Below, piece after piece: positions 48,520-64,000 of a stretch of 64,000 nucleotides of DNA. The notes beneath the pieces were generated by a model. It was given only the letters and a program-made list of their open reading frames with translations, was not told the origin of the DNA and ran no database searches. The stretch covers positions 7,530 to 71,529 of the forward strand of contig JAJDNW010000006.1 of the NCBI GenBank assembly GCA_022340465.1, in the 5' to 3' direction. This DNA is from Deltaproteobacteria bacterium. Its GTDB lineage: Bacteria; Desulfobacterota; Desulfobacteria; Desulfobacterales; B30-G6. Both the position numbers and the translations under genes were made by a program. The number at the start of each line of letters is the position of its first letter. Positions within the stretch are counted from its first letter, which is position 1.

Positions 48520-48532
48520 GCAGGGGGTTTCA

Positions 48533-50116
48533 ATGCCGTCGAAAAATGAATTTGATTATGATTATATAGTGATAGGTTCAGGCTTTGGGGGAAGTGTTTC
48601 TGCTTTGCGCCTGTCTGAAAAGGGGTACAAAGTGGCGGTCCTGGAAAAAGGGAAGCAATGGCAAAAAAAGATTTCCCCGAGACCAATTGGAATACGAAAA
48701 AATACATGTGGTTGCCTCAACTGGGTTGCTACGGTTACCAGATGCTGACGCAATTGAAGCACGTTCTCATATTTCATGGCGGGGGTGTGGGCGGTGGTAG
48801 TCTTGTTTATGCCAATCAACTGTTGATTCCACCGGATGAGGTCTTTGATCAGCCGGAATGGGGTCCGGGTGATTGGAAAGCCAACTTGATGCCGCATTAT
48901 AATGAAGCCAAAAGGATTTTGGGTGCCAATCCGAGTCCACAGATTGGTATTGCCGACAAATACCTTCGCGAAGTGGGCATAGAAATGCGCGGTGAGGATA
49001 CTTTTCATAAAAACGATGTCGGAATTTTTTTTTGGAACTCCGGATAAGACGGTTCCTGATCCCTATTTTGATGGTAGGGGACCAGATCGCACCGGCTGCA
49101 CATTTTGTGGGTCTTGCATGGTCGGCTGCCCAGTCGGTGCAAAAAATACGCTGGACAAAAACCATCTGCATCTGGCTGACGGATTAGGCGCTCGAATTAT
49201 CCCGGAAACTGAAGTGACTGGGGTTTTACCGCGCAACGGTGGATACGAGGTTTTGACCCGCAGATCAACGGGTGTCTTTCATCCTAAAAAAACTTATCGT
49301 GCCGGGGGGGTGATCTTCAGCGGGGGTGTTTTGGGATCGGTAAAACTTTTAATGAAATGCAAACAAAAAGGTTTGCTGCCGAAAATATCGGATCAATTGG
49401 GCAATTATGTACGCACCAACTCCGAAGCCCTTCTGGGTGTGAAATCAAAAGACAAGCATGTAGACTGGAATGATCAAATTGCCATTACCTCGGGCATTTA
49501 TGCGGATGAAACGACCCATATTGAAATGGTTCGTTATAACAAGGGTTCCGATGTTCTGCTGGATCTTTTTACCGTTATGACCGGTGGTGGCGGAAAAATC
49601 CCGTGTCCTATGCGGTTTTTAGGAAATATTTTCAGGCACCCCATACGTTTTGTAAAGCTATTGTGGCCACTGGGGAAAGCGGCAACAACCACGGTTGTCC
49701 TGGTAATGCAGACCGATAAAAACTACCTAAAGCTTGACTACAAACCGCGGTGGTGGCGACTTGGCGGCTACAGCATGAATAGTAAGGTTCCGGATGGCTT
49801 AAAGCGAGCACCCGTCTATATACCTGTTGCCAACGAGGTTGCCGAACGCTTGTCTCGCAAGATGAATGGCATACCACTGAGCCTTTTGCCCGAAGCCGCA
49901 TTCAATTCATCCACTACGGCGCATATCCTGGGCGGATGCTGTATGGCAGAATCGTCGGACAAAGGCGTAATTGGGTATAATGGAGAAGTGTTTAACTATC
50001 CAAATCTTTATGTTGTCGATGGTTCGGTGATACCAGCCAATTTGGGTGTAAATCCAAGCCTGACCATTACTGCGCTATCAGAGCATATTATGTCTCAGTT
50101 TCCTGAAAAAGAGTAA
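48533..50116 (+). pseudogene. GMC-family FAD oxidoreductase (cholesterol-oxidase-like), disrupted by two compensating homopolymer frameshifts
   Basis: Three consecutive ORFs: [15 protein letters not shown]...EKGKQW / KKDFPETNW...GGGVGGGSLVYAN...HKNDVGIFF / GTPDKTVPDPYF...CGSCMVGCP...HILGGC...VVDGSVIPANLGVNP. The frame changes at an A7 run (48663-69; A8 restores) and a T9 run (49025-33; T8 restores). Confidence 0.7.
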
Positions 50117-50183: not shown

Positions 50184-51758
50184 ATGAAAGAGAAATATGT
50201 GCTTGCCTTTGATCACGGCACCTCGGGCATGAAGTCTGCCATTGTTGACAGCACGGGGCAGGTGCTGGATTTTGAGTTCAAGGATACCCCCCTCTATTTT
50301 TCCCCCAATGGAGGAGCAGAACAAGACCCACAAGATTGGTGGGAAGCGCTTTTACTGACTGCCAAAAAATTGGTGAAACGCAAATCAGTACCCCCTGATC
50401 AAATTGTGGCCATCGGTATTTCCAGTACATTTTCAAGTACCGTGTCAGTGGACAAAGATGGTAAGCATTTGATGAATTCCCTTACCTGGATGGATTCCAG
50501 GGGCGCACCCTTTATCCAGAAACATATTGCCGGATTTCCGGAAGTGAACGGACTGAATGTGTTTAAGGCTTTGAAGTGGATATCAAAAACTGCGGGAGCA
50601 CCTTCTCCTTCCGGTAAGGATGACATAGCCCATGTCCTGCTGACCAAACACGAATTTCCCGAAGTGTATGAAAAAACCTTCATGTTTTTGCCGAGTAAAG
50701 ACTATTTAAATCTACGGTTGACCGGTCAGTTTGCGGCATCATACGATTCCATGCATCTCTTTTGGGTGACCAACATAAAAAATATCAACAAGATGTATTA
50801 TGATGACCGTCTGTTGAAACTGGCAGGCATCGAAAAGGATAAACTTCCCTCCATGAAACAGGCTACCGATATTCTCGGGACCGTTTCTGCAGCGGTGGCA
50901 GATGAGATCGGCATCAGCCGGGATGTAAAGGTGGTTATGGGATCACCGGACCACCAGTGCGCCTGTATCGGGTCTGGAGCTGTGAGGGACTTTGAAGGGC
51001 ATTTATATATAGGGACATCTTCCTGGCTAGAGTGTATGGTTCCCTTTAAGAAGACCGATATTCTGCACTCTATTGCCTCCTTCCCTACGGCTATTCCGGG
51101 AAAATACCAGTGTGTCAATGAGCAGGACCTGGCTGGCGGCTGTTTAACTTTTCTTATGGATAACATTCTGTTTTATGATAGTCCTCAAATTCCTACGGTC
51201 GTTCCCGACGCCGCTTATGATGCCTTGAACAAGGTAGCTGAGCAAGTTCCGCCGGGCAGCGATAAACTGATTTTTACACCCTGGTTAAACGGTGAACGGA
51301 CGCCGGTGGACGATACGCTGTTAAGGGGTGGTTTTCATAACATGTCCAAAACAACGAATCGTAATCATATGATTCGGGCTGTCTTGGAAGGTGTTGCCTA
51401 TAATACACGCTGGATGCTTCACTATATAGAAAAATACATCGGCCGTCCCCTGAATCCCATTAGCATTATCGGCGGGGGGGCAAAATCGAGGATATGGTGT
51501 CAGATTTTCGCCGATGTTTTGCAGCGGGATATTCGACAAGTGAAAAATCCCATCCACGCGAATGCACGCGGAGCCGCCTTTATCGCAATGGCCGGGCTAG
51601 GTGAACTTACGTTTGAGGATGTCGCCAATCGGGTGCAATACGACGCCACGTTTACTCCCAATCCAGGCAATATCGAAATGTATAATGAATTGTATAAAGC
51701 CTTCATCAAGATTTACACCACGAACAAAAAGATTTACCAAAAACTGAACTGTCAATGA
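50184..51758 (+). CDS. FGGY-family carbohydrate kinase (paralog of 44150-45745)
   Basis: YVLAFDHGTSGMKS, GSPDHQCACIGSGA, IIGGGAKSRIWCQIFADVL. Collinear with the first copy. Confidence 0.85.
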   Translation: MKEKYVLAFDHGTSGMKSAIVDSTGQVLDFEFKDTPLYFSPNGGAEQDPQDWWEALLLTAKKLVKRKSVPPDQIVAIGISSTFSSTVSVDKDGKHLMNSLTWMDSRGAPFIQKHIAGFPEVNGLNVFKALKWISKTAGAPSPSGKDDIAHVLLTKHEFPEVYEKTFMFLPSKDYLNLRLTGQFAASYDSMHLFWVTNIKNINKMYYDDRLLKLAGIEKDKLPSMKQATDILGTVSAAVADEIGISRDVKVVMGSPDHQCACIGSGAVRDFEGHLYIGTSSWLECMVPFKKTDILHSIASFPTAIPGKYQCVNEQDLAGGCLTFLMDNILFYDSPQIPTVVPDAAYDALNKVAEQVPPGSDKLIFTPWLNGERTPVDDTLLRGGFHNMSKTTNRNHMIRAVLEGVAYNTRWMLHYIEKYIGRPLNPISIIGGGAKSRIWCQIFADVLQRDIRQVKNPIHANARGAAFIAMAGLGELTFEDVANRVQYDATFTPNPGNIEMYNELYKAFIKIYTTNKKIYQKLNCQ

Positions 51759-52178
51759 CATTCAGTTCATGCAATAAAAGGGCGCGGTGATTAAATTACC
51801 CACTTGGCGTTTTTAAATCTTCAAGCTGAATTAAATTCCTTTTATCTAAAGTGCTCAGGATGAATGATGGTATATTCTGGTAGGTGATATCCCGTCAAAA
51901 AAGATGGAGATAGATGTCGTAGTAATTTGACATTTGGTTGGGTCTTCATTTGAAAATTCACAAGATAGCCCGACCTGCATGACAGCAACAAGCCGGGCCA
52001 TAAGAAAGGAGGTATAAAGGAGGTGCACATGATATGGGCCCAAATTCCCATACCAATACAACATATAGTATGAATAGATAAAAATGTCAATAAAAATAAA
52101 AAATGAAACACACAATTAAGGACGGGAGTGTAGGGGAGAGCTTACAATATCTCTTCTGCCGATAGTATATAAACCTAT

Positions 52179-52367
52179 TCAGGCATAACAACCGATAAAC
52201 TCGCCGCAGTGATCGTTGAAAAACTCCAAAGCTTCATCAACAGAGTCAAACATGATCCAGTCGTGCTTAATAACTCTTTCACCCTGCATACGGATGCGTT
52301 CAATCTCCGTGTTCCCAAAATATTCAAAATGGTCTTGGTAATCTGTGTATATTTCCTGTGTTCTCAT
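52179..52367 (-). CDS. hypothetical small acidic protein
   Basis: 62 aa. Strong SD (AAAGGAGGGTAAAA) before the ATG at 52367. No recognisable family. Confidence 0.45.
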   Translation of the reverse strand: MRTQEIYTDYQDHFEYFGNTEIERIRMQGERVIKHDWIMFDSVDEALEFFNDHCGEFIGCYA

Positions 52368-52497
52368 TTTTACCCTCCTTTTGCTGAATGATTGAGCTCA
52401 GATTACCATATGGGTTTGACAGATCCGGTCACAGTGTTGTAAATTTATTGATATTTTTACAGAGAACAAGCAGGCAAAATCATAAAAAGGGTTTCCT

Positions 52498-52773
52498 ATG
52501 AACAAACTCGAAGTTATTCAGACCATTTGTGCTCAGAATGGCCTCTCCAAAGCCGAAGCGACAAGAATCGTATCTGTCTTTTTCGAGCAGATGTCAGCTG
52601 CATTGGAAAGAGGGGACCGCGTGGAGATCCGTGGTCTATGTTCTTTTTACGTTAAGGATTATCCGGGTTATTCTGGTAGAAACCCTAAGACGGGAGTAAC
52701 CGTGGAGGTCGCGCCGAAAAAACTGCCATTTTTCAAGTGTGGAAAAGAACTGAAAGATCGGATGAATAAATGA
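52498..52773 (+). CDS. IHF/HU-family DNA-bending protein (IHF-beta-like)
   Basis: 91 aa. RVEIRGLCSF...GRNPKTGVTVEVAPKKLPFFKCGKELKDRMN, the beta-arm signature of IHF/HU. Confidence 0.85.
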   Translation: MNKLEVIQTICAQNGLSKAEATRIVSVFFEQMSAALERGDRVEIRGLCSFYVKDYPGYSGRNPKTGVTVEVAPKKLPFFKCGKELKDRMNK

Positions 52774-52937
52774 TGGTCGATAAAATTGCAGGAATTGTAT
52801 TTGGCATGCTGGCCGTTGGCATTTATGCCTGGAAATTCAAGGAAACCCCTTTATGCCGGCCATGAATCATGATGCCTTTGGGATTAGGCGTCGGGTACGC
52901 TGTTTATTGGCTGGTTAAGAAGGTGGCGATAGGGTAG
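52773..52937 (+). CDS. candidate two-TM micro-protein with in-frame TGA (possible C-x-x-U selenopeptide), or a 30-aa peptide ending at 52865
   Basis: ATG overlaps the IHF stop (TGATG). MVDKIAGIVFGMLAVGIYAWKFKETPLCRP-TGA-IMMPLGLGVGYAVYWLVKKVAIG-TAG in a single frame. Hairpin TGATGCCT-TTGGGATT-AGGCGTCG at 52870-52893. Confidence 0.25.
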
Positions 52938-52950
52938 GGCGAAGAAGCCC

Positions 52951-53029
52951 CCATTCGTCAGAAACACTCAAATTCGAATATTACCCCACCACAATATCTA
53001 GTGGCTTCTCTATAAATATCAATAGGCTA
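52951..53029. repeat. ~79-bp imperfect direct repeat, copy 2
   Basis: See copy 1 (38451-38529). Same orientation, exactly 14,500 bp downstream. Confidence 0.75.
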
Positions 53030-53229
53030 TCTTCAATCATATAATCAACTTCTATTAGGTCTCCAAAAAATTATAAAAATCTTTAGGTCTGACAACTTAC
53101 GATCGGTTGCCATTTGCGTTTGTAATCTTTCTCACAGTAAAAAACTTTTCCGGAACAGGCTATGGATATGGCGATGAGAAAGTGGCAATGCGTTAAGTGG
53201 CGAATCTTACAGGAGGTCTCCGAGGCAAG

Positions 53230-54345
53230 TTAACCGGATCTGATTTCCTCAATCAGCTTATTAAAAGTACTTGATGTGTGGTGATAAAAGTTCAGCCAAC
53301 CTTCACAAAAATGACTGACGCCACCGGTTTTCACTAAATAACCGCGGTGTTTTAAACAGTCGCCTTGGCACAAGTCAAGATAGACGCAGGATTTGCATTC
53401 TGTTGCCACTACTGATTTTTGACAGCCAAAGTCCTGGAAGATTGACGAAGAAAGGGCCTCTTCCCAGCTTGTGTCCATAATATTGCCAATTTTTAAATCC
53501 TGCCGGACAAAAAAATCACATGGAAAAATATCACCGTTGTGTTCCACCAGAAAATACTGACAGCAATTATTAGAGAGGCTGCAGGCCGTTATGGAACCAT
53601 CATAACGTTTATTGAGAATATCATCAAAGTGGCGCACCGAAACTTTGTGAATATCATTCGGGTACCATGCGTCAAAAACCTCCAGTAGGAACCGTCCCCA
53701 TTCAGGTCCGCTGATTGAATAGGGAAAAGGATTGCCTTTTGGGTCTAATTCCAGGCACGGGATGTATTGATGATAATAGAAACCTCGCTTTACAAGATAC
53801 TGGTAAACCTCACGGGCATGTCTCACATTGGCCTGACTGACCACGGTAAGAATGTTTACGGCTACACCGAAGTGCTGCAACCTCCGGATTCCGTTGAGGA
53901 CGATCGAGTGAGAGCCTTTACCGCCTGAAAATTTTCTGAATCGATTGTGTAATTCAGGGGGGCCATCGAGACTGCAACCTACCAGATAACAGTAGCTCGC
54001 TAAAAACTCTGCCAGGGTATTGTCAATGAGGGTTGCATTCGTCTGGAGGCCATTTGAAACCAGTGAGCCGGGGCGGGCATACTTATTCTGAAACCCGGCA
54101 ACCTGTTTAAAAAATTCGACGCCCATCAGGAGGGGTTCACCGCCCTGCCATCCAAAGGTATAATTCGGTTGGTCGGTTTTCAGATAGGTTTTCACCAATT
54201 GCTCGAGCACGGTCTCAGGCATTCTGTGAGCTCTGGATTGAGGGTACAGTTTGCGCTTATCCAGGTAGAAACAGTAGTCACAGTTCATATTGCAGTCCGC
54301 AGAAGTTGGCTTTATTAAAAGGCTGAATGGCTTCACAGACGACAC
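53230..54345 (-). CDS. anaerobic sulfatase-maturating enzyme (radical SAM/SPASM)
   Basis: 371 aa. LLIKPTSADCNMNCDYCFY (CxxxCxxC), GGEPLL, C-terminal Cys clusters (CQYF...CDFF..., CKSCVYLDLCQGDC), typical of anSME. Confidence 0.85.
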   Translation of the reverse strand: MSSVKPFSLLIKPTSADCNMNCDYCFYLDKRKLYPQSRAHRMPETVLEQLVKTYLKTDQPNYTFGWQGGEPLLMGVEFFKQVAGFQNKYARPGSLVSNGLQTNATLIDNTLAEFLASYCYLVGCSLDGPPELHNRFRKFSGGKGSHSIVLNGIRRLQHFGVAVNILTVVSQANVRHAREVYQYLVKRGFYYHQYIPCLELDPKGNPFPYSISGPEWGRFLLEVFDAWYPNDIHKVSVRHFDDILNKRYDGSITACSLSNNCCQYFLVEHNGDIFPCDFFVRQDLKIGNIMDTSWEEALSSSIFQDFGCQKSVVATECKSCVYLDLCQGDCLKHRGYLVKTGGVSHFCEGWLNFYHHTSSTFNKLIEEIRSG

Positions 54346-54520
54346 CTCAGATCAAAACGGATTCTCAATTGTTTTCTTGGTTTGTTTACCAACAGTCTCT
54401 GCATGGCGTAACAGGCGAAAACAGCATTTTGCGATGCAAAGCAAATGTCAATTAATCATTTCAGATCGGGAATCTAAACGCCCCTAATATTGAACTAAAA
54501 GCATTCAAACCGGCATGTTG

Positions 54521-57500
54521 CTATTTTTCAACGTGGAGCGATTGCCTTTTCAGGGATTTGACATCCATCCTGAGCTGGCGCATGCGGCTGTAGACACTGG
54601 TGCGATTCATCCCTAGAATTTCGGCTGCGCCACCCGTACCGCCGATCTGACCCTTGGTTTTCTTTATTACGAATTCAATGTATCGGCGCTGAAGGTTTCC
54701 CAAGGTTGGGAAATCCTCAAAAGGGTTCGTTGATTGGCCTCGCATGTCAACTGGGAGTGAAAATTCCAGTTGTTTATCCGTTGATAACAATACCGCCCTT
54801 TCGATAATATTCTGTAACTCCCTGACATTGCCCGGCCATTTGTATGTCCGCAGTATGGTTACCTGCTCTCCTGTTAATTTCAGATCGTGCCGGTTGTATT
54901 TCTTCGTGTAGCGATCAATGAAATGGTCGGCCAACAAAGCAATGTCCTCTTGCCGTTCCCGCAGAGGCGGTAAATGGATGGGAATGACGTTCAGCCGATA
55001 ATACAAGTCCTCACGGAAACGGCTTTCAGCGATCTCTTTTTCGAGATCTCGGTTAGTGGCGGCGATCAATCGAAAATTCGAACGAATCGTACGCGTCCCG
55101 CCGAGGCGGTTAAACTCCTTCTCCTGAATGGCACGCAGCAGCTTTACCTGAGCCGGCAAGGGCAATTCACCGATCTCGTCTAAAAAAAGGGTGCCTTCAT
55201 GCGCCATCTCGATTCGGCCCAATCTGCGCCGGTCGGCTCCGGTGAAGGCACCGCGTTCGTGACCAAACAATTCACTTTCCAGCAGGTTTTCAGGAATGGT
55301 GGTTGCATCCACGACGATAAAAGGCTTTTCTGAGCGCTGGCTGCTGCGGTGGATCCTGTAGGCCAGCAACTCTTTGCCGGTTCCGGTTTCCCCAGTGATC
55401 AATATCGTGGAATCGGTCCCTGCAATCTGATCGGTCACCTTCAGCAGATGCTTCATTTTCTCTGATTTTGCAACGATTTGACGCGAATCGCGCGCATCGT
55501 CGTGAGATTTCATGGAAACAAGAAGATTGCGCTCTTCCTCGATCCGGAGATGGTGTAAGCGGCGTTCGACAACCAGGTTGGTGTGGCGCGCAATGTCACG
55601 CATAATTTCCGGGTCCAGAAAATCGAAGGCATCCGAGAGGTAGGAGTTGTCAAAGTACATGACGCCGTGCACGGAACCACCGACCTCGACCGGTATACTC
55701 AACATGGAAAACACCCTCGGATAGCCCTTTTGGCGATCGCCTTCGGGCGATCTGCCCAACTGAGGCTGGTTTGTATGAAAGGCCTTCAGCACCATGGCCA
55801 GATTTGTTTTAAAGCTCTCATGTTCAATTTCTGCCGCCGGCAAATTACACGTCGCCCGCAACTTCGGCACGGCAGTGTACTTGCCGCCGGGAAACCAGAA
55901 AAGGGCACTGCGCTCGGCCCCGAACAATCGATTTGCCCGTGAGAGCACCCCTGCCAGGATTTCCTGTCTGGTTTCAATAGGGTAAAGCGATTCGATCATC
56001 TCGAGGTAGCTTTGCATGGTTTGTCTACGGCGGTGATCCGGGTCTAGCGGGCTCTCCTGATTTTCGAACAGATGCCTGAATTCGTCAGGAAAGAATTCCT
56101 CGGTATAACCACCCAGCAGGTGCCGGGCCTTTCTGGCAAGTTGTCTGGCTTTTTCGCGGTCACCGCACCTCAATTCAGTGCGGGCCATTTCAAGTATTGT
56201 TTTCGAGAGCTGGACGGGATCGCCGGATTGCTCCAGGTAGTGCATGCTCTGAACAAGGTCGTCCCTAATCCCATCGATGTGCTCATTGTTCGATGATTTT
56301 TCGTGGGCTTTCAATCTAAAGGCAACGCCCTTTAAATGAACGTTGACACCCGTGAGTATGCGGTGCATTTCATCCGGAAAATGTATCTTGTCGGCTATTT
56401 GAAAACCCAGCCGGTGGAACTCATAATTCATTTCCAATATCCATGGAGAAGCATATTGCCGGATGATGCCGGCCTGGGTGCTTTTCTTGACAGCACTGTT
56501 GCTAGCTCGACAGGCTTTCTCCATGCGCCCCTCGAGAAAATGGTGCAGGGTAAACCCACCCCGGGCTAAATGCACACCCAGTGCGTTGCCACATCCCAGG
56601 GCTTCTTCAAGGGCCTCCTCTAGATTATTTAAACCCTCTTTTTGCTTGCGCAGCAAAATGAGCACGGTACCCAGGGTGGCTTGGATGGTGGAAGCCAGCG
56701 CCGTATCCGATCGATCCTTGGCCAGGCGCCACTGGTAGTCAAGGTTTCCAATGGCGCGGTGAAACTGACCCAGGTACACGGCACAGTAGCCGGTCAGAAA
56801 AGGCGCTGTGGGATGGGTCAAAACGCCCCATTTGGCTGTCCCGAAGGCCTGTTCCGCTTTTTCAAAGTGCTCGATGGCCTTTTTGTGGAGCCCCTTGGTA
56901 AAGTATAAAAGACCGAGAAAAAGGGCGGATTGGCCTAGAATGTCGTCGTCGCCCAGTTCATGAATTTCCTCAAAGCCCATGGACAGGGCTACTATTGCCT
57001 CATCCCGGCGGTTGGAAAAATAATAGAGCCGGCCCAGATGTAAATTGAGAAGGGCATGGGAGCGCTGATCGCCCATTTTTTGGGTAACCTCACCGGCGCT
57101 GTTCAGATATGTTACAATTTCGCCAAACCCGTACCCCAGGGAAAAAAGCATATTGGAAAGCTCAAGCACACTGGAAACAAACATTCTGTTTGCAACATCT
57201 TGGGCGCGTATTGGATACAAATGCTCTACAGCGGCCTGAAGGTAAACCCGCGACGTTTCGAAATCATTATTGTTAAACGCTGCATGGGCTAACCCTATTT
57301 CGTACTCAGCTGCCTCCCGTCTGCGGCCCGTTCTGGTGAGCAGGGTCAGCATCTCTTCGGGCCCGACATTTTCATGCATCTGCTTCAGATAGAGATTGTC
57401 GACCATGTCGTTCAGGGAGCTCTTTCCATTCAATGCGATCAGATGGTCTCGGATGTCATCCGGCAGGTCGGCAGATAAGGAAAAACAATTGTTCTTATCC

Positions 57501-57670
57501 TGACGCAGCCATCCGGCAGAGCGTCCCTTTTCAATCAGGTCAAAAAGCGGTCCTGGCAGAAGCGGCGCAAGCGCACCGGCTGTGTCTGCGGATACTGGTC
57601 CGCCAAAGGCCTCCAGGACGGCCAGAAACTGCCACTGATTATCGGTAAGTACCACGTTGGTGTTTTTCAT
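54521..57670 (-). CDS. large sigma-54-dependent activator (helical/TPR-like N-terminus, GAF, AAA+, Fis HTH)
   Basis: 1049 aa. GETGTGKE Walker A, ESELFGHERGAFTGA, DEIGEL, C-terminal HTH. About 650 aa of sensory region upstream. Confidence 0.85.
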   Translation of the reverse strand: MKNTNVVLTDNQWQFLAVLEAFGGPVSADTAGALAPLLPGPLFDLIEKGRSAGWLRQDKNNCFSLSADLPDDIRDHLIALNGKSSLNDMVDNLYLKQMHENVGPEEMLTLLTRTGRRREAAEYEIGLAHAAFNNNDFETSRVYLQAAVEHLYPIRAQDVANRMFVSSVLELSNMLFSLGYGFGEIVTYLNSAGEVTQKMGDQRSHALLNLHLGRLYYFSNRRDEAIVALSMGFEEIHELGDDDILGQSALFLGLLYFTKGLHKKAIEHFEKAEQAFGTAKWGVLTHPTAPFLTGYCAVYLGQFHRAIGNLDYQWRLAKDRSDTALASTIQATLGTVLILLRKQKEGLNNLEEALEEALGCGNALGVHLARGGFTLHHFLEGRMEKACRASNSAVKKSTQAGIIRQYASPWILEMNYEFHRLGFQIADKIHFPDEMHRILTGVNVHLKGVAFRLKAHEKSSNNEHIDGIRDDLVQSMHYLEQSGDPVQLSKTILEMARTELRCGDREKARQLARKARHLLGGYTEEFFPDEFRHLFENQESPLDPDHRRRQTMQSYLEMIESLYPIETRQEILAGVLSRANRLFGAERSALFWFPGGKYTAVPKLRATCNLPAAEIEHESFKTNLAMVLKAFHTNQPQLGRSPEGDRQKGYPRVFSMLSIPVEVGGSVHGVMYFDNSYLSDAFDFLDPEIMRDIARHTNLVVERRLHHLRIEEERNLLVSMKSHDDARDSRQIVAKSEKMKHLLKVTDQIAGTDSTILITGETGTGKELLAYRIHRSSQRSEKPFIVVDATTIPENLLESELFGHERGAFTGADRRRLGRIEMAHEGTLFLDEIGELPLPAQVKLLRAIQEKEFNRLGGTRTIRSNFRLIAATNRDLEKEIAESRFREDLYYRLNVIPIHLPPLRERQEDIALLADHFIDRYTKKYNRHDLKLTGEQVTILRTYKWPGNVRELQNIIERAVLLSTDKQLEFSLPVDMRGQSTNPFEDFPTLGNLQRRYIEFVIKKTKGQIGGTGGAAEILGMNRTSVYSRMRQLRMDVKSLKRQSLHVEK

Positions 57671-57821
57671 AATCTATCCATTTATCGCATTGCCACCGCA
57701 GAGTCAACATGGTGATCGTATTGAGACACAGTTTGTTTTAATTAAGACTACCGGAGCGTGGAGCTATTTGAAAAGCTATTTAAACAATTGTAAACATTAT
57801 AAAATAAATATTATCACACGA

Positions 57822-57837
57822 TGGCATACCTCTTGCT
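57822..57837 (+). promoter_or_regulatory. sigma-54 (-24/-12) promoter
   Basis: TGGCATACCTCTTGCT. Near-consensus with correct 12-nt GG/GC spacing, 67 nt before the ATG at 57904. Preceded by very AT-rich DNA and a GCTATTT direct repeat. Confidence 0.75.
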
Positions 57838-57903
57838 GTTGATGCTATTACATCTGATTCTTTCAAAATCTCACCAGGTAATTTTTAAACGGACAACCTG
57901 AAA

Positions 57904-58302
57904 ATGGCAGTTTTCAAAAACAGAGAGACCATGGAGATGGTGTACGAAGAAATCTGGGATCAGCTGATCCGCGAAACGGACATAGGCTTAAGAATGAAGA
58001 AAGCCGGCATTAACATCCTCTTCAGGTTTACCGATCCCGACATGGTGATGTACATCGATGAGAAAGGCGCTCTCTTTGGAGAAACGGCTGAAGCACAACG
58101 ACCGGTCATTATGGAAAGCTTGAGCGGTGATACCGCCCACCGGTTCTGGCTGAACAAAATCGATATGACCAGGGCCCTGGCATCCCATCAGATTAAGGCC
58201 AAAGGCTCGGCCGTGAAAATGCTGCAGCTGTTGCCGCTGTTAAAGCCGGTAAAGGATATCTATCCGGTGTATTGCCGAAAATACAATCTACCCGTGGACT
58301 GA
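57904..58302 (+). CDS. SCP2 (sterol carrier protein 2-like) domain protein
   Basis: 132 aa. Alternating pattern ILFRFTDPD..MYIDEKG...MESLSGDTAHRFWLNKIDMTRALASHQIKAKGS..KMLQLLPL matches the SCP2 fold consensus (G-k-l....A...G-k-i-k-v-k-G). Confidence 0.65.
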   Translation: MAVFKNRETMEMVYEEIWDQLIRETDIGLRMKKAGINILFRFTDPDMVMYIDEKGALFGETAEAQRPVIMESLSGDTAHRFWLNKIDMTRALASHQIKAKGSAVKMLQLLPLLKPVKDIYPVYCRKYNLPVD

Positions 58303-58357
58303 CAGACGATTATTTTTTGTTAATCAATTGTTAAGGCCTCAAAACCGCTGGTGACAA

Positions 58358-60256
58358 ATGGATGAGAAAAGCAGAAAATCCGCCAATACTTTCGAAAGCA
58401 TCGCTAAATGGAGTGCTATTGGGGTGGTCCTGGCCATGGTTGCCTACCACGTAATCATCGTCTGGAAACCGTTGTTCGGATCCCAGATCAACCAGAACAA
58501 CCACCTGGGTTTTTGTCTGGTACTGCTTTTTTTGCACTGGGCCATCATGGATACGCGCAAATGGTTGAAAATCATCTATCTGATATGCATCCCCTTAAGC
58601 TTGGGGCTGTTGACGTTCATGGCCATGGAAAACATGCGCCTGATGATGGAGGTAGGGTTTCCTGAAAACAAGGATATCGTTGTTGGTGTGCTGCTGATCA
58701 TCCTGGTTTTGGCCGGCACCTGGAAGACCTTCGGTCCCATCTTCCCGGTCATGGTCATGGTGGCGCTGGCCTACACCTTCTGGGGCCATCTCATCCCCGG
58801 GGTGCTCAACCACCCCAAATTCGAGTTCGGCTACGTGGTGTCGAATTTGAGCACCGGATTTCAGGGCATCTACGGCATGCTCCTGGATGCCTCGGTCAAC
58901 CTTTTATTTTTGCTGATCATCTTCGGGTCCATATTTGAAGCCACCGGTGTCACCGCCTTTTTTATGGAGTTGGGAAAATGGCTGGGCCGCAATCTGATCG
59001 GCGGAGCCGGGCAAACCGCCGTGTTTTCCTCTTCCTTCGTGGGAATGGTCAACGGTGCGGCAGCGGCCAATGTCGCCATCACCGGCGCCTATACGATACC
59101 GGTCATGAAAAAAGCCGGCTTCCGCAGCGAAACCGCGGCAGCCATCGAGGCCATGGCCTCCACCGGTGGGCAGCTGACCCCGCCGATCATGGGTATTGCC
59201 GTGTTTATCATGGCCAGTTTTATCGGGGTCAGCTACGGCGAGCTGATGTTCAAAGCGGTGCTGCCGGCGGTGTTCTATTATGCCCTGGCGGTTTTCGGGG
59301 TGATCATCATAGCCGCCCGCGAGAAAATACCCATGGGCACCGAGCAGATGGACAAACGCATCTTCCTGGCGGGTCTGCCGGTTTTTGTCGTTCCCATGGG
59401 CGTGTTGACCGCCATGCTGGTTTTGCACTTTTCCATCGGTTATTCGGCCCTTTTCGGAATCATTACCATTTTAGCCATATCCATGCTGCGCAGGATCACG
59501 CGGCCCGCCCTCAAGGTGCTGATACGCAACCTCGTGACCGGAGCGATCATGGCGGCCTCCATCGGCATCGCCTGCGGCTGCATCGGGATTTTCATCAAAA
59601 GCCTGACCCTGTCCGGTGCCATGACCAAACTGGCCCTGTTGGTCGGTGATATCAGCGGGGGACACCTTTTGCCGACCCTTTTTCTCACCATGATCCTGTC
59701 GATCGTGCTCAGCTCGTCCATGCCGACGGTCATCGCCTATATCGTGGTGGCTTTTGTGTCCGCACCGATACTAAAGGATTTGGGATTGCCTCAGCAGACG
59801 GCTCACTTTTTTGTGTTCTATTTTGCCATCCTGGCGGCGGTCACCCCGCCGATTGCCGGGGCGGCCATGGTCGGCTCCCAGATTGCCGGTTCCAGATACA
59901 TGAAGGTGTCTTGGGAGAGTTTCAAGCTCGTGGGCCCGTTTTTTATCCTGCCCTATTTTACCATTAACAATCCCATCGTGTTTATGGAGTACCAGCAGCC
60001 CGTGCAGGCGATTGCCGTGCTGATCACCATGGTCATTGCACTGGGCGCCATGATGTGCCTGTTTCAGGGATATTGCTTCAGGTCCACCGGCAGGGCGGAA
60101 AAACTTTTTTTGATCACGGCAGCAGGTTGCGCGGTGCTGTTCGGGTTGTATCATCATCCAGCGCTGTTTGCCGGCGCTGCCTTGTCCGCAGCTGCTTTTC
60201 TGGCTTTTCAGCGGCGAAAGATCAGTGGAAAAATTTTAAATGCGAAACCTGCATGA
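58358..60256 (+). CDS. TRAP transporter fused permease (4TM/12TM fusion, TAXI-type)
   Basis: 632 aa, ~17 hydrophobic segments. The size and the adjacent TAXI-like binding protein fit the fused DctQM of TAXI-TRAP systems. Confidence 0.75.
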   Translation: MDEKSRKSANTFESIAKWSAIGVVLAMVAYHVIIVWKPLFGSQINQNNHLGFCLVLLFLHWAIMDTRKWLKIIYLICIPLSLGLLTFMAMENMRLMMEVGFPENKDIVVGVLLIILVLAGTWKTFGPIFPVMVMVALAYTFWGHLIPGVLNHPKFEFGYVVSNLSTGFQGIYGMLLDASVNLLFLLIIFGSIFEATGVTAFFMELGKWLGRNLIGGAGQTAVFSSSFVGMVNGAAAANVAITGAYTIPVMKKAGFRSETAAAIEAMASTGGQLTPPIMGIAVFIMASFIGVSYGELMFKAVLPAVFYYALAVFGVIIIAAREKIPMGTEQMDKRIFLAGLPVFVVPMGVLTAMLVLHFSIGYSALFGIITILAISMLRRITRPALKVLIRNLVTGAIMAASIGIACGCIGIFIKSLTLSGAMTKLALLVGDISGGHLLPTLFLTMILSIVLSSSMPTVIAYIVVAFVSAPILKDLGLPQQTAHFFVFYFAILAAVTPPIAGAAMVGSQIAGSRYMKVSWESFKLVGPFFILPYFTINNPIVFMEYQQPVQAIAVLITMVIALGAMMCLFQGYCFRSTGRAEKLFLITAAGCAVLFGLYHHPALFAGAALSAAAFLAFQRRKISGKILNAKPA

Positions 60257-60280
60257 AACCCAATGAGAGAGGAGAAAAAA

Positions 60281-61351
60281 ATGAAGCGAAAACCAATTTT
60301 GGCTGTAATCCTGATCACTGCAATGGTTCTGGCGGTGCAATGGAATGCCGTTGGTGCTGAAACCAAAAAACCGGTGGATGTGACCATTTTGACCACACCG
60401 TTCGGTACGCCCATGTATAATATCGGGGCTGCCATGGAGCAGGTATTTAAAAAAACCGGTTCCTGGGTGCGTATCAAACACCAGGAAACACCCGGGGCCA
60501 TGTATATGCTCAAATACTACAAAACCAACCAGCACAAAATGATATCCGGTGAAATGCCCTGGGCCATTACCGTAGGGGGTGCCTTGTCCATGGACTTCGT
60601 GGCCGAGGGCCGGCCGCCGCTGGATAAACTGGCCATTCCTAACTATCGTGCCATCATGGACGGTCCCGCTGCCATCGCCTTCTATGGCACCTTTGACCCG
60701 GAGATCAAGAGCCTGAAGGATATGGCCGGCAAGAAAATGGGGACGGTCGAACCGCCGCGTTTGTTTGCCGGAACGCTTGTCGAAGGGCCGCTATTCGATC
60801 ATCTGGGTATCAACGATAAAATCGATTGGCAGCGCATCGGAACCACGGCGTCAAAAGACGGCATGCTCAATGGTTCCATCGATGCCATGCGGCTGCTGTT
60901 TATCGGCAAGCTTAAGGTGGCGGAAGACGGCAGCCTTTATATCCCGCAGATGTTTCCCTCTCCTGCGGCCATGGAGCTGATCGGGTCGGGAAAGACGTTT
61001 CATTTTCTGCCCATCGAACGTGAGTGGACCACCGCAGGTTTTGACTATTCCAGGGATGTCTATGTCTTGCCCTGCAGGATTAAAAAAGGTTCTTTTAAAA
61101 CCGTTGACAAAGAATTCTGGGCCCAGGTCAGTCCATTGACCATCACCAGCATCGCCGAACTGCCCGATGACATTGTCGAGGAAATCATCCGGGTGGCCCA
61201 TCAACACCATGCGGCATTCGGCAAAATCCACGCCATGCTGGGGTTTATGCCCGAAAACCCCTATCCTGTGGGCGCGCCGCAGCATCTGGTGCATCCCGGT
61301 GTGGTCAAAGCCATGAAAAAGTTGAACCTGCCCGTGCCCAAATTGAGGTAA
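60281..61351 (+). CDS. TAXI-family TRAP solute-binding protein
   Basis: Signal peptide (KPILAVILITAMVLAVQWNAVGA), then TILTTPFGTPMYNIGAAM...QETPGAMYMLK, resembling the TAXI T-g-G-t-Y-G and s-t-G-s-N-l motifs. ATG at 60281 after GAGAGGAG. Confidence 0.65.
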   Translation: MKRKPILAVILITAMVLAVQWNAVGAETKKPVDVTILTTPFGTPMYNIGAAMEQVFKKTGSWVRIKHQETPGAMYMLKYYKTNQHKMISGEMPWAITVGGALSMDFVAEGRPPLDKLAIPNYRAIMDGPAAIAFYGTFDPEIKSLKDMAGKKMGTVEPPRLFAGTLVEGPLFDHLGINDKIDWQRIGTTASKDGMLNGSIDAMRLLFIGKLKVAEDGSLYIPQMFPSPAAMELIGSGKTFHFLPIEREWTTAGFDYSRDVYVLPCRIKKGSFKTVDKEFWAQVSPLTITSIAELPDDIVEEIIRVAHQHHAAFGKIHAMLGFMPENPYPVGAPQHLVHPGVVKAMKKLNLPVPKLR

Positions 61352-61363
61352 AGGAGGAGCAAG

Positions 61364-63628
61364 ATGAGCGGTTCCGAGCAATTCAAAGGCAAGATCGGAC
61401 GCACCATAAAAGATTCGACGCCCTGGTGGCCTGCACCCAGGCGTCCGAAAGCGGGTAGTCCGAATGTGGTGGTCATCCTGCTGGACGATACCGGGTTCGG
61501 CCATTTCGGCTGCTATGGATCCACGATTGAGACGCCTAATTTCGACCGTCTGGCCGCGGGCGGGCTGCGCTACAACAACTTCCACACCACGGCGCTGTGC
61601 TCTCCCACAAGGGCCAGCCTGTTGACCGGGCGCAATCATCACACCGTGGGCATGCGCGCCCTGTCCAATTTTGACACCGGTTATCCCCACATGCGCGGTT
61701 GCATCTCACCGCATGCAGCCACCATCGCCGAAATTCTGCGTGAAGAGGGCTATGCCACCTTAGCTGTCGGCAAATGGCATCTGGCGCCCATGGAGGAAGC
61801 CTCAACCGCCGGACCGTTCGACAACTGGCCCTTGCAGCGCGGGTTCGACCGTTTTTACGGTTTTTTGCAGGGGGAAACCGATCAGTTTCATCCTGAGTTG
61901 ACCTATGACAATCACCCGGTTGATCCGCCCTGCGGACCGGAAGAGGGCTACCACCTCAGTGAAGACCTTGTCGATCAGTCCATGGCCTTTATCCGCGATT
62001 CAACGTCCATTCGGCCGGATCGGCCCTTTTTTCTGTACCTGGCTTTCGGAGCCACCCATTCGCCGCATCAGGCCCCCCGGGAATTCATCGAAAAATATCG
62101 CGGCCGTTTTGATGAGGGCTGGGATGTCGTCCGTGAAAAATGGTACCGCAGGCAGATCGAAATGGGGGTCATTCCTGAAGATACGGAGCTGGCACCGCGC
62201 AATCCAGGGGTGCGTCCCTGGGATGCGCTTTCGGAAAACGAGAAGAAGTTTGCCCTGCGGCTCCAGGAAGCGTTTGCCGCCATGCTGGATCACACCGACC
62301 AGCAGGTTGGGCGGCTGATCGATTTTCTCGAAGAGATGCAACAAATCGACAACACCTTGATAGTACTGCTCTCGGATAACGGTGCCAGCCAGGAAGGCGG
62401 CCCCACCGGTGTGATGGACGAGTTCAGGTATTTCAATGGGGTGCCTGAAGACGTTGATGCCGTCCAGGATCGGCTGGATGAAATCGGCGGACCCCACAGC
62501 CATTCCAACATCCCCTGGGGTTGGGCCCAGACTGGAAATTCACCCCTCAAGTGGTACAAGCAAAACACCCACGGCGGCGGTGTCCGCGACCCCCTGATCA
62601 TGCATTGGCCCGCACGCATTAAGGGCCACGGGGGGGTTCGCGGCCAATTCCACCATGTTTCGGACATCGTACCGACCATCCTGGAGATGTTGGATGTCGA
62701 CCCGCCCGACACCTACCGCGGGTGTGAGCAGATGCCCATGACCGGGACATCCATGGCCTATAGCTTTGATGAGGCCAACGAGCCTACCCGCAAGCAGGTC
62801 CAATATTTCGAGATGTTCGGACACCGCGGTATCTGGGCCGACGGCTGGAAGGCCGTCACCTACCACCGGCCGGACACGCCCTTTAGTGACGATGAGTGGG
62901 AGCTTTACCATCTGACCGAAGATTTTTCCGAAAGCCGCAACCTGGCCGCCGAACATCCCGATAAACTGCGCGAAATGATCGACCTGTGGTGGGTTGAAGC
63001 CGGACGGCAGGGTGTGCTGCCCTTGGACGACCGTCGTTTTTTATTTCAATCCATGCGCCGTCCTGGCACACCGCATGAAAAGCGGCACTATACCTACTAT
63101 CCTCCGCTCTCGCATGTGCCCTCGGATGTGGCGCCCACCCTGGGCAGCCGCACCTGGACCATGCGCGTCGAGGTTGATCGGCCGGATGCCTCCGTCCAGG
63201 GTGTCATCGCGGCCCAGGGGACCCAAAACGGCGGATACAGCTGGTATATCAAGGATAACAAAATGGTGTTCGACTACAATATTTTCACCGAACACCATGT
63301 GGTCCGTTCTGATACAGAGGTCCCCATCGGTCGGATCCCGCTTGAAATACGCTTCGTGCGCGATGGAGATACCGGAAAGATCACCCTGGTGATGGAAGGA
63401 CAGGAATGCGGTACCATCCAGGTGCCTTATGTGATGCGCATGATCAGTTCCACGGGCCTCGATATCGGCAAAGACAGCCTGTCGCCGGTAACAAACGACT
63501 ATGCGGCCCCATTTGCATTTGGCGGGAGAATCCGCAGGCTCGATGTCGTCCTGCACCGCTACCGCAGCCCCAAGGAAAAGCAGGAGGATGAAGACGTCAG
63601 GATGCGCACCGAAATGGCCAAACAATAG
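61364..63628 (+). CDS. Cys-type sulfatase, large (754 aa), no signal peptide
   Basis: VVILLDDTGFG metal site, canonical FGly motif LCSPTRASLLTGRNHH, GKWHL, LSDNGAS, ~230-aa beta-rich C-terminal extension. The N-terminus is hydrophilic (MSGSEQFKGKIGRTIKDSTPWW). Confidence 0.85.
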   Translation: MSGSEQFKGKIGRTIKDSTPWWPAPRRPKAGSPNVVVILLDDTGFGHFGCYGSTIETPNFDRLAAGGLRYNNFHTTALCSPTRASLLTGRNHHTVGMRALSNFDTGYPHMRGCISPHAATIAEILREEGYATLAVGKWHLAPMEEASTAGPFDNWPLQRGFDRFYGFLQGETDQFHPELTYDNHPVDPPCGPEEGYHLSEDLVDQSMAFIRDSTSIRPDRPFFLYLAFGATHSPHQAPREFIEKYRGRFDEGWDVVREKWYRRQIEMGVIPEDTELAPRNPGVRPWDALSENEKKFALRLQEAFAAMLDHTDQQVGRLIDFLEEMQQIDNTLIVLLSDNGASQEGGPTGVMDEFRYFNGVPEDVDAVQDRLDEIGGPHSHSNIPWGWAQTGNSPLKWYKQNTHGGGVRDPLIMHWPARIKGHGGVRGQFHHVSDIVPTILEMLDVDPPDTYRGCEQMPMTGTSMAYSFDEANEPTRKQVQYFEMFGHRGIWADGWKAVTYHRPDTPFSDDEWELYHLTEDFSESRNLAAEHPDKLREMIDLWWVEAGRQGVLPLDDRRFLFQSMRRPGTPHEKRHYTYYPPLSHVPSDVAPTLGSRTWTMRVEVDRPDASVQGVIAAQGTQNGGYSWYIKDNKMVFDYNIFTEHHVVRSDTEVPIGRIPLEIRFVRDGDTGKITLVMEGQECGTIQVPYVMRMISSTGLDIGKDSLSPVTNDYAAPFAFGGRIRRLDVVLHRYRSPKEKQEDEDVRMRTEMAKQ

Positions 63629-63676
63629 GCGGGCGGATGTCTGCTGTCTTCTACGAACCCAATAGGGAGGATGAGC

Positions 63677-64000
63677 ATGGGAACCAAGCAAAACAGCAAT
63701 GATTCAACATGGGAGGCCCACAAATCCATGTTTCGCCCAAGGGGCGTGCACATGGGGATGATGCAGTGCGATGCGGAATTGTGCACCCAGTGCGGGCTTT
63801 GTATCGAGAACTGCCCCTTCAGGGCCTGGGAAGCGGACGAAAGCAACATTCCCAGGTTGAGGCCGGGCTATGCCTGCTTCAGCTGCTACAACTGTATGGT
63901 GGCCTGTCCCACAGGGGCCATCTCGATTGTCACGCCCTACCAGGTGGACAAGGGGAGCTTTTATGAAACCCTGGGCGGCCCCCTGGAACCTAAAGAGCCC
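63677..64000 (+). CDS. 2x[4Fe-4S] ferredoxin-domain protein (3' end outside window)
   Basis: ATG 6 nt after AGGGAGG. CTQCGLCIENCP and CFSCYNCMVACP. The frame is open to the last base of the window. Confidence 0.65.
   Translation, partial: MGTKQNSNDSTWEAHKSMFRPRGVHMGMMQCDAELCTQCGLCIENCPFRAWEADESNIPRLRPGYACFSCYNCMVACPTGAISIVTPYQVDKGSFYETLGGPLEPKEP

Follow-up and report, generated by a model that had tools for sequence, protein, structure and literature searches.

In Pseudomonas, AtsRBC acts as an ATP-binding cassette (ABC) importer of sulfate esters that feeds their hydrolysis by the cytoplasmic sulfatase AtsA. Tripartite ATP-independent periplasmic (TRAP) systems with a TAXI binding protein, whose usual partner is a fused TRAP permease, have so far been characterised as taking carboxylates or amino acids, and the TRAP importers of organosulfonates, as far as is known, use DctP-type binding proteins. 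Sulfate esters constitute a large organic sulfur pool in marine sediments. A review of the sulfur cycle in sediments calls it "essentially unknown" how far anaerobes there are able to desulfate organic compounds (PMC5573963). Here we analyse a locus at positions 53230-64000 of a 64-kb window (the whole stretch of DNA under analysis, to which coordinates refer unless a contig or locus is named) from an uncultured marine deltaproteobacterium. It encodes a TAXI-TRAP transporter, a sulfatase, an anaerobic sulfatase-maturing enzyme (anSME), an SCP2-fold protein and a sigma-54 activator, and is probably the regulatory and front section of a long operon whose products would break down a lipid-like organic sulfate ester. 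In the reading we favour, this compound would be imported by the TAXI-TRAP transporter, desulfated in the cytoplasm and then degraded through coenzyme A (CoA)-dependent reactions.

Such a combined route of import, desulfation and degradation is not yet described for anaerobes; the logic of an importer joined to a cytoplasmic PAS-type sulfatase is, by analogy with AtsRBC/AtsA, already known. Full-text literature searches turned up neither a TRAP-coupled sulfatase system nor a cluster joining SCP2, acyl-CoA dehydrogenase and DUF2148 genes, nor any mention of DUF2148. This agrees with the statement in a first-pass annotation of this DNA that TRAP-coupled cytoplasmic sulfatases with a free-standing SCP2 protein are not known to have been characterised. 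The open reading frames of that annotation are all present, at the coordinates it gives, in the map of 48-64 kb, and genes beyond the window were read from three public contigs that encode an identical sulfatase (L001, L002 and L003), the longest being extended by a second look-up (L128).

The sulfatase, the transporter and their relatives

The 754-aa sulfatase matches PF00884 with E 2e-66 (224.5 bits against a cutoff of 25), and its closest solved structure is AtsA of P. aeruginosa, also known as PAS (E 2e-84 over residues 32-550). Its active-site residues D41, D42, C79, R83, K137, H139, H232, D338, N339 and K399 align with D13, D14, C51, R55, K113, H115, H211, D317, N318 and K375 of PAS, and the formylglycine motif reads C79-S-P-T-R83. 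The 31 residues that precede this core are hydrophilic, the maximum 12-residue hydropathy in the first 60 residues being 1.6, compared with 3.0-3.2 for the signal peptides at the locus. In addition, the motif F-x-G-x-I-G-R-T-x-x-E-S-x-P-W-W-P is conserved upstream of the first strand in 80 orthologues, among which a hydrophobic N-terminal stretch occurs at a single locus and there only in the longest conceivable upstream extension. Two arginines at residues 26-27, read from the sequence, were rejected as a Tat signal, since P-K-A and the first strand of the fold come directly after them. Because the N-terminus is hydrophilic, is conserved as a motif and holds no Tat signal, we take the sulfatase to be cytoplasmic, which would fit maturation by a cytoplasmic anSME. 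The CSPTR sulfatase with a hydrophilic N-terminus described in the first-pass annotation is therefore confirmed by its PF00884 match, the PAS residues and the conserved motif; the cryptic export signal that the annotation had named as a point that would tell against it was seen neither by hydropathy nor in the motif of the 80 orthologues.

Relatives of the sulfatase occur in at least 597 stretches of reference genomes, and the 80 best, which were examined, are nearly all full-length and 57-72% identical. A C-terminal extension of about 200 aa (residues about 560-754) has no Pfam match and is kept in full-length orthologues from Acidimicrobiia, Asgard archaea and Dehalococcoidia. In the Asgard locus L013, two copies of the sulfatase are paired with an anSME. 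The anSME of our locus, likewise proposed earlier, scores above the cutoff of its equivalog model and carries both cysteine motifs, CX3CX2C at 18-25 (C18, C22, C25) and CX2CX5CX3C at 317-330 (C317, C320, C326, C330). A second S1 sulfatase of 512 aa lies on the minus strand of the window (10694-12232), with a clear signal peptide and the formylglycine-motif variant C-T-A-G-R, and the anSME at 53230-54345 could also serve this exported enzyme.

The fused permease and the TAXI-type binding protein of the first-pass annotation are borne out as well, the former by a TIGR02123 score above cutoff and the latter by fold and signal peptide. On its own sequence the binding protein stays below the family models (TIGR02122, E 2e-17 over the full length and 62.8 bits with a cutoff of 84.35; PF16868, 23.5 bits with a cutoff of 27); among its relatives of 33-87% identity, many carry PF16868 in precomputed matches and others have no Pfam match on record. 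Its AlphaFold2 (AF2) model has a pLDDT of 90.6, and the seven best PDB matches found by Foldseek are all TAXI proteins (E 1e-18 to 2e-16). The TAXI fold is thus accompanied by an export signal (signal peptide hydrophobicity 3.18) and by a fused permease encoded immediately upstream. A ribosome-binding site, GAGAGGAG, precedes 60281, which is the probable true start.

The strongest argument for the import of sulfate esters comes from the loci of related TAXI proteins. Those of 40-53% identity form a deltaproteobacterial subfamily. In L095/L099, a sigma-54 activator is followed by an S1-family protein, three proteins with metallo-beta-lactamase (MBL) and Alkyl_sulf_dimr domains, a fused permease, a TAXI protein, a hydrolase, a Fer4 protein and a Cys-type S1 sulfatase, and in L096, from the cultured Desulfatitalea alkaliphila, the order is activator, S1-family protein, MBL+Alkyl_sulf_dimr protein, permease and TAXI protein. 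At these loci none of the hydrolases has a signal peptide, the TAXI proteins have one, and the MBL proteins keep the HxHxDH motif as HGHVDH or HGHLDH. A metagenome scan adds L104, L105, L108, L118, L120 and L122, where the TRAP/TAXI pair adjoins one or two MBL genes of this kind, again with an intact HxHxDH motif; this brings the further loci with sulfatase-flanked TAXI relatives to eight. Overall, about half of the loci with TAXI relatives adjoin signal-peptide-less sulfatases of two unrelated classes, Cys-type S1 and MBL+Alkyl_sulf_dimr. The recurrence of two unrelated hydrolase classes suggests that the transporters of this subfamily carry sulfate esters into the cell.

The PF00884 proteins at the head of L095 (1390-2844, 484 aa) and L096 (5207-6673, 488 aa) read C-P-T-I-P-T-R-R-A-L-L-T-G. 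They may not be formylglycine sulfatases, because Thr instead of Cys or Ser occupies the formylglycine position.

The operon, its promoter and related loci

The genes of the operon within the window are separated by 55, 24, 12 and 48 nt, and no terminator-like site was found in any of these gaps; co-transcription is therefore likely. Downstream of the window the gaps are at most 29 nt, and the operon continues for at least 14 kb past the window end as one uninterrupted same-strand array of at least 16 genes and about 20 kb. Its order is SCP2 protein, TRAP permease, TAXI protein, sulfatase, ferredoxin-nitroreductase, acyl-CoA ligase (528 aa), SCPx-type thiolase, Usp, zinc-dependent alcohol dehydrogenase, acyl-CoA dehydrogenase, EcKL/APH-family kinase, histidine phosphatase, second acyl-CoA ligase (578 aa), SdsA-type protein (585 aa), molybdenum bis-pyranopterin guanine dinucleotide (Mo-bisPGD) oxidoreductase (744 aa) and the start of an exported Cys-type sulfatase. 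Inspection of the genes downstream of 64000, which the first-pass annotation had recommended, has thus brought to light a further sulfatase, an SdsA-like gene and CoA-catabolic genes. Its ferredoxin does have two [4Fe-4S] motifs and does continue past the window, but it is not a free ferredoxin: in the contigs with the identical sulfatase the full-length protein is a fusion of 343 aa, with Fer4 and PF00881 Nitroreductase domains. The coordinates are collected in Table 1.

Table 1. Features of the locus and of the operon genes past the window end
Feature	Position	Strand	Basis and details
IHF-beta/HU-like DNA-bending protein gene	52498..52773	+	NF001222 91.5 bits, below cutoff 115; between FGGY kinase gene and anSME
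anSME (radical SAM/SPASM)	53230..54345	-	TIGR03942 380 bits, cutoff 349; Radical_SAM and SPASM Pfam matches
Sigma-54 enhancer-binding activator, 1049 aa	54521..57670	-	TPR-like helical N-terminus, GAF, AAA+ with GAFTGA loop, Fis-type helix-turn-helix
Probable upstream activator sequence (pair of 15-nt direct repeats spaced 21 bp apart)	57713..57748	+	TGATCGTATTGAGAC at 57713-57727; TGTTTTAATTAAGAC at 57734-57748
Sigma-54 promoter TGGCAT-N5-TTGCT (GG-N10-GC), TGGCATACCTCTTGCT	57822..57837	+	in 233-bp divergent intergenic region
Free-standing SCP2-fold protein, cytoplasmic, 132 aa, first operon gene	57904..58302	+	AF2 fold and family-level Pfam matches
Fused TRAP permease, 632 aa (small and large membrane components)	58358..60256	+	TIGR02123 415 bits, cutoff 321; DctM E 2e-55
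Divergent TAXI-family periplasmic solute-binding protein, Sec signal peptide	60263..61351	+	AF2 fold; TIGR02122 below cutoff
Cys-type formylglycine sulfatase, taken as cytoplasmic, 754 aa	61364..63628	+	PF00884; PAS-like core, residues 32-550
Ferredoxin-nitroreductase fusion, N-terminal 2x[4Fe-4S] part	63677..64000	+	Fer4 matches; cut by window end
SdsA/Pisa1/YjcS homologue, 585 aa	L128:13599-15356, about 8 kb past window end		MBL, dimerisation and SCP2-like domains; no signal peptide
Mo-bisPGD oxidoreductase, 744 aa, cytoplasmic, Fdh/Phs group	L128:15358-17592		N-terminal 4Fe-4S motif; no Tat signal
Third Cys-type sulfatase, start only, exported	L128:17633-18031		signal peptide; AAVCSPTR

The activator gene is divergent from the operon. 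Its product matches Sigma54_activat (E 3e-69) and AAA_lid_14, the GAFTGA loop is present in the translation, a GAF domain at 568-698 reaches 23.9 bits against a cutoff of 22.4, and the N-terminal 520 aa give weak TPR matches, all in agreement with the helical and GAF-containing activator of the earlier annotation. Full-length homologues of 55-80% identity are likewise divergent from SCP2 genes in L089, L091, L093, L004 and L098. The near-consensus sigma-54 promoter noted before, TGGCATACCTCTTGCT, is the sole match to TGGCAY-N5-TTGCW on both strands of the 64 kb, where 0.25 are expected and 22 of 100 shuffled sequences hold at least one. It is conserved: at five other distinct loci (L089/L090, L091/L092, L093/L094, L004 and L098) a sigma-54 promoter likewise precedes the SCP2 start codon, at a distance of 69-84 nt, so that the GG-N10-GC element, the TGGCA/TTGC core, a cognate GAFTGA-bearing AAA+ activator and conservation are all found together. 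About 75-110 nt upstream of the -24 element lie the two direct repeats, which show the highest conservation in an alignment of the intergenic regions from operons with and without transporter and sulfatase; given this conservation, we infer that they are binding sites of the activator. An AT-rich stretch separates them from the promoter, and the IHF-beta-like protein is a possible accessory to it, its membership in the system being uncertain.

This control also bears on sulfur scavenging as carried out by the Pseudomonas ats genes, in which esters would be imported and hydrolysed solely for biosynthetic sulfur. The layout of an importer next to a signal-peptide-less PAS-like sulfatase does resemble AtsRBC/AtsA, but here a ligand-sensing sigma-54 activator drives an operon with more than ten carbon-catabolic genes, and the relatives belong to Desulfobacterota, which presumably live where sulfate is typically not limiting. 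We therefore hold scavenging to be very improbable.

The same gene order, from the activator through at least the acyl-CoA dehydrogenase, recurs in three further lineages (L089/L097, L091 and L098). The proteins of the front genes are 78-93% identical, and the Fer4-nitroreductase protein, CoA ligase 1 and the acyl-CoA dehydrogenase somewhat less so. A simpler operon type, in which neither transporter nor sulfatase is present, was found in L093, L004, L005 and L007, from other Desulfobacterota, a Syntrophobacteraceae metagenome-assembled genome and Desulfofundulus. Not every element occurs in every locus of this type; it comprises an activator of about 1040 aa that is 55% identical over its whole length, a sigma-54 promoter 69-78 nt from the SCP2 start, an SCP2 protein (39-53% identity), an acyl-CoA dehydrogenase (45-48%), an SCPx-type thiolase (50-54%), two DUF2148 proteins and a CoA ligase. 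Given that this older module occurs without the insert in other Desulfobacterota and in Firmicutes, the simplest history appears to be that a TRAP-TAXI-sulfatase cassette was inserted into an activator-SCP2-acyl-CoA dehydrogenase-CoA ligase-thiolase module.

The paired DUF2148 genes are constant in the sulfatase-less operons (L093:8101-9708, L004:11710-13101, L007:7103-8733). We considered their products as homologues of the ferredoxin-nitroreductase protein, which has a like position in the operon, and rejected this since BLASTP gave no similarity; by the same method, the fusion and the Fer4 protein of L095 share no homology beyond the cluster motifs.

The SCP2 identity of the first operon gene rests on fold and family, because the 132-aa sequence itself matches no family model: it gave no Pfam or NCBIfam match even at E 10 and no match in a phmmer search of the PDB, and thus falls outside PF02036 on its own sequence. 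Among its 62 homologues, 35 were scanned, of which 22 match PF02036 (SCP2; best E 1.8e-9) and 26 match PF14864, the alkylsulfatase C-terminal domain. The AF2 model (pLDDT 93) matches SCP2 structures at E 4e-8 with a TM-score of 0.65. In Foldseek, the E-values are 4e-8 to 6e-7 for Yarrowia and human SCP2 and about 6e-5 for the C-terminal domain of SdsA1/Pisa1, and the 38 PDB matches at E <= 0.001 are all SCP2 proteins or SCP2-like domains (SCP2, MFE-2 SCP2L, UbiJ-SCP2, alkylsulfatase C-terminal domains). The protein has no signal peptide and is a putative carrier of a hydrophobic substrate or product. Although the SCP2 assignment of the first-pass annotation thus holds, its view of the protein as a specific partner of the sulfatase does not: where transporter and sulfatase are missing, the partners are the activator, the acyl-CoA dehydrogenase and the SCPx-type thiolase. 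Judged from gene order, the conserved partners of the SCP2 protein are acyl-CoA enzymes, as in eukaryotic SCPx/SCP2, rather than the sulfatase.

Of the later operon genes, the thiolase matches "lipid-transfer protein" models. CoA ligase 1 also scores, far under the cutoffs, on models of benzoate- and 3-hydroxybenzoate-CoA ligases; the best model for CoA ligase 2 is CasG, at 391 bits against a cutoff of 750, and the matches of the ligases to CasG/CasI, all below cutoff, are nearly tied with generic fatty-acid ligases. The acyl-CoA dehydrogenase has acryloyl-CoA reductase-like proteins as its best models, far below cutoffs. The kinase matches PF02958 and PF01636 and belongs to an ecdysteroid-kinase-like family; a pathway with a 4-hydroxyacyl-CoA kinase of the Lva or ACAD10-11 type was considered, for which the match to the ACAD11 structure 8V3V is weak (E 0.0097). 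For the 585-aa protein, homology to YjcS, Pisa1 and SdsA1 extends over the full length (E 2e-47 to 2e-40, SdsA1 at 2e-40), and the closest relatives of the 744-aa molybdenum enzyme are formate dehydrogenase and thiosulfate reductase.

Some of these genes would also suit an oxygen-independent pathway for sterol or steroid sulfates in this marine deltaproteobacterium, for instance diatom or animal sterol sulfates or bile-alcohol sulfates. Here TAXI-TRAP import would be followed by 3-O-desulfation in the cytoplasm with the SCP2 protein as sterol carrier, and then by side-chain activation and cleavage through steroid-24-oyl-CoA synthetase-like CoA ligases, the acyl-CoA dehydrogenase and the SCPx-type thiolase, the EcKL kinase and the molybdenum enzyme taking part in side-chain functionalisation. 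The hints are CasG as best, sub-cutoff model of CoA ligase 2, the ecdysteroid-kinase-like kinase and a cholesterol-oxidase-like gene nearby. Against it, the molybdenum enzyme is Fdh/Phs-like and not of the steroid C25 dehydrogenase type, and no ring-degradation genes were seen in the recovered stretch, and we regard this version as quite unlikely. The cholesterol-oxidase-like GMC oxidoreductase gene lies at 48452-50116 on the plus strand, about 3 kb before the anSME gene and about 8 kb from the promoter. It is split over three frames (48452-48748, 48658-49047 and 48992-50116), which cover positions 2-44, 42-167 and 171-535 of NF058674; the two frameshifts mark either a pseudogene or assembly errors.

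Further observations concern the rest of the window. Choline sulfate was considered as a substrate, prompted by two MttB-like genes upstream, and rejected: the choline-sulfatase model gives 78 bits against a cutoff of 433, and the MttB genes lie outside the operon. These two MttB-superfamily methyltransferase genes (39538-40995 and 47059-48519, plus strand), with a major facilitator superfamily transporter, FGGY kinases, an FAD-linked oxidase and a saccharopine-dehydrogenase-like gene between or around them, look like a separate locus for quaternary amines or methylated compounds. The G+C content climbs along the locus from 0.457 in the anSME gene through 0.519 (activator), 0.494 (SCP2), 0.546 (TRAP) and 0.527 (TAXI) to 0.581 in the sulfatase gene, with a window mean of 0.531; this trend is compatible with separate origins of the modules and is no proof of them. 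An Rfam scan of 51500-64000 found no RNA family.

The proposed route and what weighs on it

Taken together, these features would fit the following course of events. The TPR-GAF activator would sense the compound or a derivative of it, bind the tandem repeats about 75-110 nt upstream and fire the sigma-54 promoter at 57822-57837. The periplasmic TAXI protein would capture the anionic ester, and the fused TRAP permease would import it. In the cytoplasm, the adjacent anSME would convert Cys79 of the sulfatase to formylglycine, and the PAS-like sulfatase would split the ester into alcohol and sulfate. The SCP2 protein may keep the poorly soluble product in solution, while the zinc-dependent alcohol dehydrogenase, the two acyl-CoA ligases, the acyl-CoA dehydrogenase and the SCPx-type thiolase would oxidise this product, convert it to a CoA thioester and break it down. 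The substrate is probably aliphatic or lipid-like, as the SCP2 protein, the SCPx thiolase, the SdsA relatives and the fatty-acid-type ligases indicate. Use of the released sulfate as an electron acceptor, as the first-pass annotation proposed, is a reasonable assumption from membership in Desulfobacterota.

A number of findings speak against this proposal. All support for it is comparative, coming from sequence, predicted fold and synteny. The nearest characterised relative of the sulfatase, PAS, is an arylsulfatase rather than a lipid sulfatase. TRAP/SCP2 context was absent around the 80 best orthologues, from Acidimicrobiia, Asgard archaea, Dehalococcoidia and Proteobacteria, and therefore the sulfatase family, judged from these neighbourhoods, is common in itself and not tied to the system of the locus. 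The anSME gene is not adjacent in L091. No sulfatase neighbour was detected for about eight TAXI relatives (L100/L101, L106, L107, L109, L111, L113/L115, L114 and L117), which adjoin CoA ligases, succinyl-CoA-synthetase-like genes or an aldehyde oxidoreductase (AOR), nor at three distant TAXI loci (23-27% identity); the link between TAXI proteins and sulfatases is frequent and not universal, and the subfamily is not exclusive to sulfate esters. The solved TAXI proteins, which are 13-16% identical to ours, bind small carboxylates or amino acids. SulfAtlas defines family S3 by the HxHxDH zinc motif together with >=30% identity to SdsA1 (PMC5066984); in the SdsA-like protein of the operon this motif is replaced by SHHH--YTGG, which makes it no bona fide S3 alkylsulfatase, and it could be a relative that lacks catalytic activity or carries other metals. 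Among the scanned open reading frames of the window there was no dsr, apr or sat gene, so that sulfate reduction lacks support there. Finally, enoyl-CoA hydratase, 3-hydroxyacyl-CoA dehydrogenase and aldehyde dehydrogenase genes were not seen in the recovered stretch, which leaves the degradative route incomplete.

Some of these points would be accounted for if the TRAP system imported a non-sulfated organic acid for the CoA pathway, for example a hydroxy fatty acid, a branched-chain fatty acid or a carboxylate resembling a bile acid, with the sulfatase trimming an occasional sulfated variant or being a passenger. The ligands of the solved TAXI proteins, the half of the TAXI relatives that lie beside CoA ligases without a sulfatase, and the CoA module without a sulfatase in L093 and L004 all agree with this. 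However, four lineages share the gene order TRAP-TAXI-sulfatase, at eight further loci the TAXI subfamily is found together with sulfatases of unrelated classes, and the operons without the sulfatase are also those without the transporter, from which it follows that the two would have arrived together. We thus consider a non-sulfated substrate unlikely.

An aromatic sulfate ester comes into question on account of PAS, the nearest solved and characterised enzyme, which SulfAtlas lists as S1_4 (PMC5066984). Sulfated phenolic acids such as zosteric acid, or phenyl and catechol sulfates, would be desulfated, and the phenolic acid would be activated with CoA and shortened in its side chain; a carboxylated substrate would suit a TRAP system, and the sub-cutoff matches of CoA ligase 1 to benzoate- and 3-hydroxybenzoate-CoA ligase models would suit the product. 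On the other hand, the PAS-type enzymes were mostly assayed on artificial aryl substrates only (PMC5066984), and no genes for aromatic-ring reduction were seen. Aliphatic or lipid substrates are indicated by four features: SCP2, the thiolase of SCPx type, the SdsA-like protein and the neighbours of TAXI relatives that resemble alkylsulfatases. We therefore consider an aromatic substrate unlikely.

Import of a lipid-like sulfate ester with cytoplasmic hydrolysis thus remains our preferred reading, and for the corresponding proposal of the first-pass annotation the support is partial: the signal-peptide-less sulfatase family with its 80 orthologues, the recurrence of TAXI proteins with sulfatases and the downstream SdsA-like and CoA genes are in its favour, and the half of the TAXI relatives without a sulfatase is not. 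If it is correct, a TAXI-TRAP importer, cytoplasmic sulfatases and an anSME under sigma-54 control would form a recurring module of Desulfobacterota and an uptake route for sulfated lipids, yielding the carbon skeleton together with sulfate that is already inside the cell. Sulfate esters would then be a new class of ligand for TAXI transporters, and the widespread family of free-standing bacterial SCP2 proteins would gain a function. The related module in the cultured Desulfatitalea alkaliphila makes the hypothesis directly testable.

Comparison with described systems

Of the described systems, AtsA (PAS, S1_4) with AtsRBC shares with the locus the logic of ester import followed by cytoplasmic hydrolysis, and AtsA is both a signal-peptide-less formylglycine sulfatase and the nearest solved structure. 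In contrast to that system, the locus employs a TAXI-TRAP secondary transporter rather than an ABC importer, an oxygen-independent maturation by anSME, and a sigma-54 activator in place of cys regulon control; its sulfatase lies inside a carbon-catabolic operon and has an extra C-terminal domain of about 200 aa, and it is accompanied by a free-standing SCP2 protein.

The class III (S3) alkylsulfatases SdsA1 and Pisa1 are related to the locus in two ways. Their substrate-recruiting C-terminal domain shares its fold with the 132-aa protein (E 6e-5, with PF14864 matches in 26 of 35 relatives), and the operon encodes a full-length SdsA homologue. Nevertheless, SCP2 has a gene of its own at this locus, the window's catalytic sulfatase belongs to the S1 formylglycine enzymes, and the SdsA homologue differs from SdsA1/Pisa1 in having SHHH--YTGG for HxHxDH and no signal peptide. 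The eukaryotic peroxisomal SCPx/SCP2 system offers another parallel, in that here, too, genes for an SCPx-type thiolase and an acyl-CoA dehydrogenase are linked to that of an SCP2-fold protein, whose best matches by fold are Yarrowia and human SCP2 and the SCP2 domain of MFE-2. In the locus these genes are not fused, they belong to an anaerobic bacterial setting with sigma-54 control, and the sequence identity is only about 20%.

As regards transport, the characterised TAXI-TRAP systems (Thermus GluBP, 1US4/8U79; Vibrio VcGluP, 9IBO/8S4J; VCA0144) resemble the locus in fold (TM-scores of 0.66-0.77, normalised on the target), in the signal peptide and in the gene being adjacent to a fused permease. 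The TAXI protein of the locus differs from them by its 13-16% identity, about 50 extra residues and a score below the TIGR02122 cutoff, and it is partnered in the genome by sulfatases, not by amino-acid or dicarboxylate genes. The organosulfonate TRAP importers of sulfidogens, such as the isethionate importer IseP (8T9T), which is a remote fold match of the TAXI model, likewise bring an organosulfur anion into an anaerobe by TRAP transport. In their case the C-S bonds of the substrates are cleaved by glycyl-radical enzymes, whereas at this locus a C-O-S ester would be hydrolysed.

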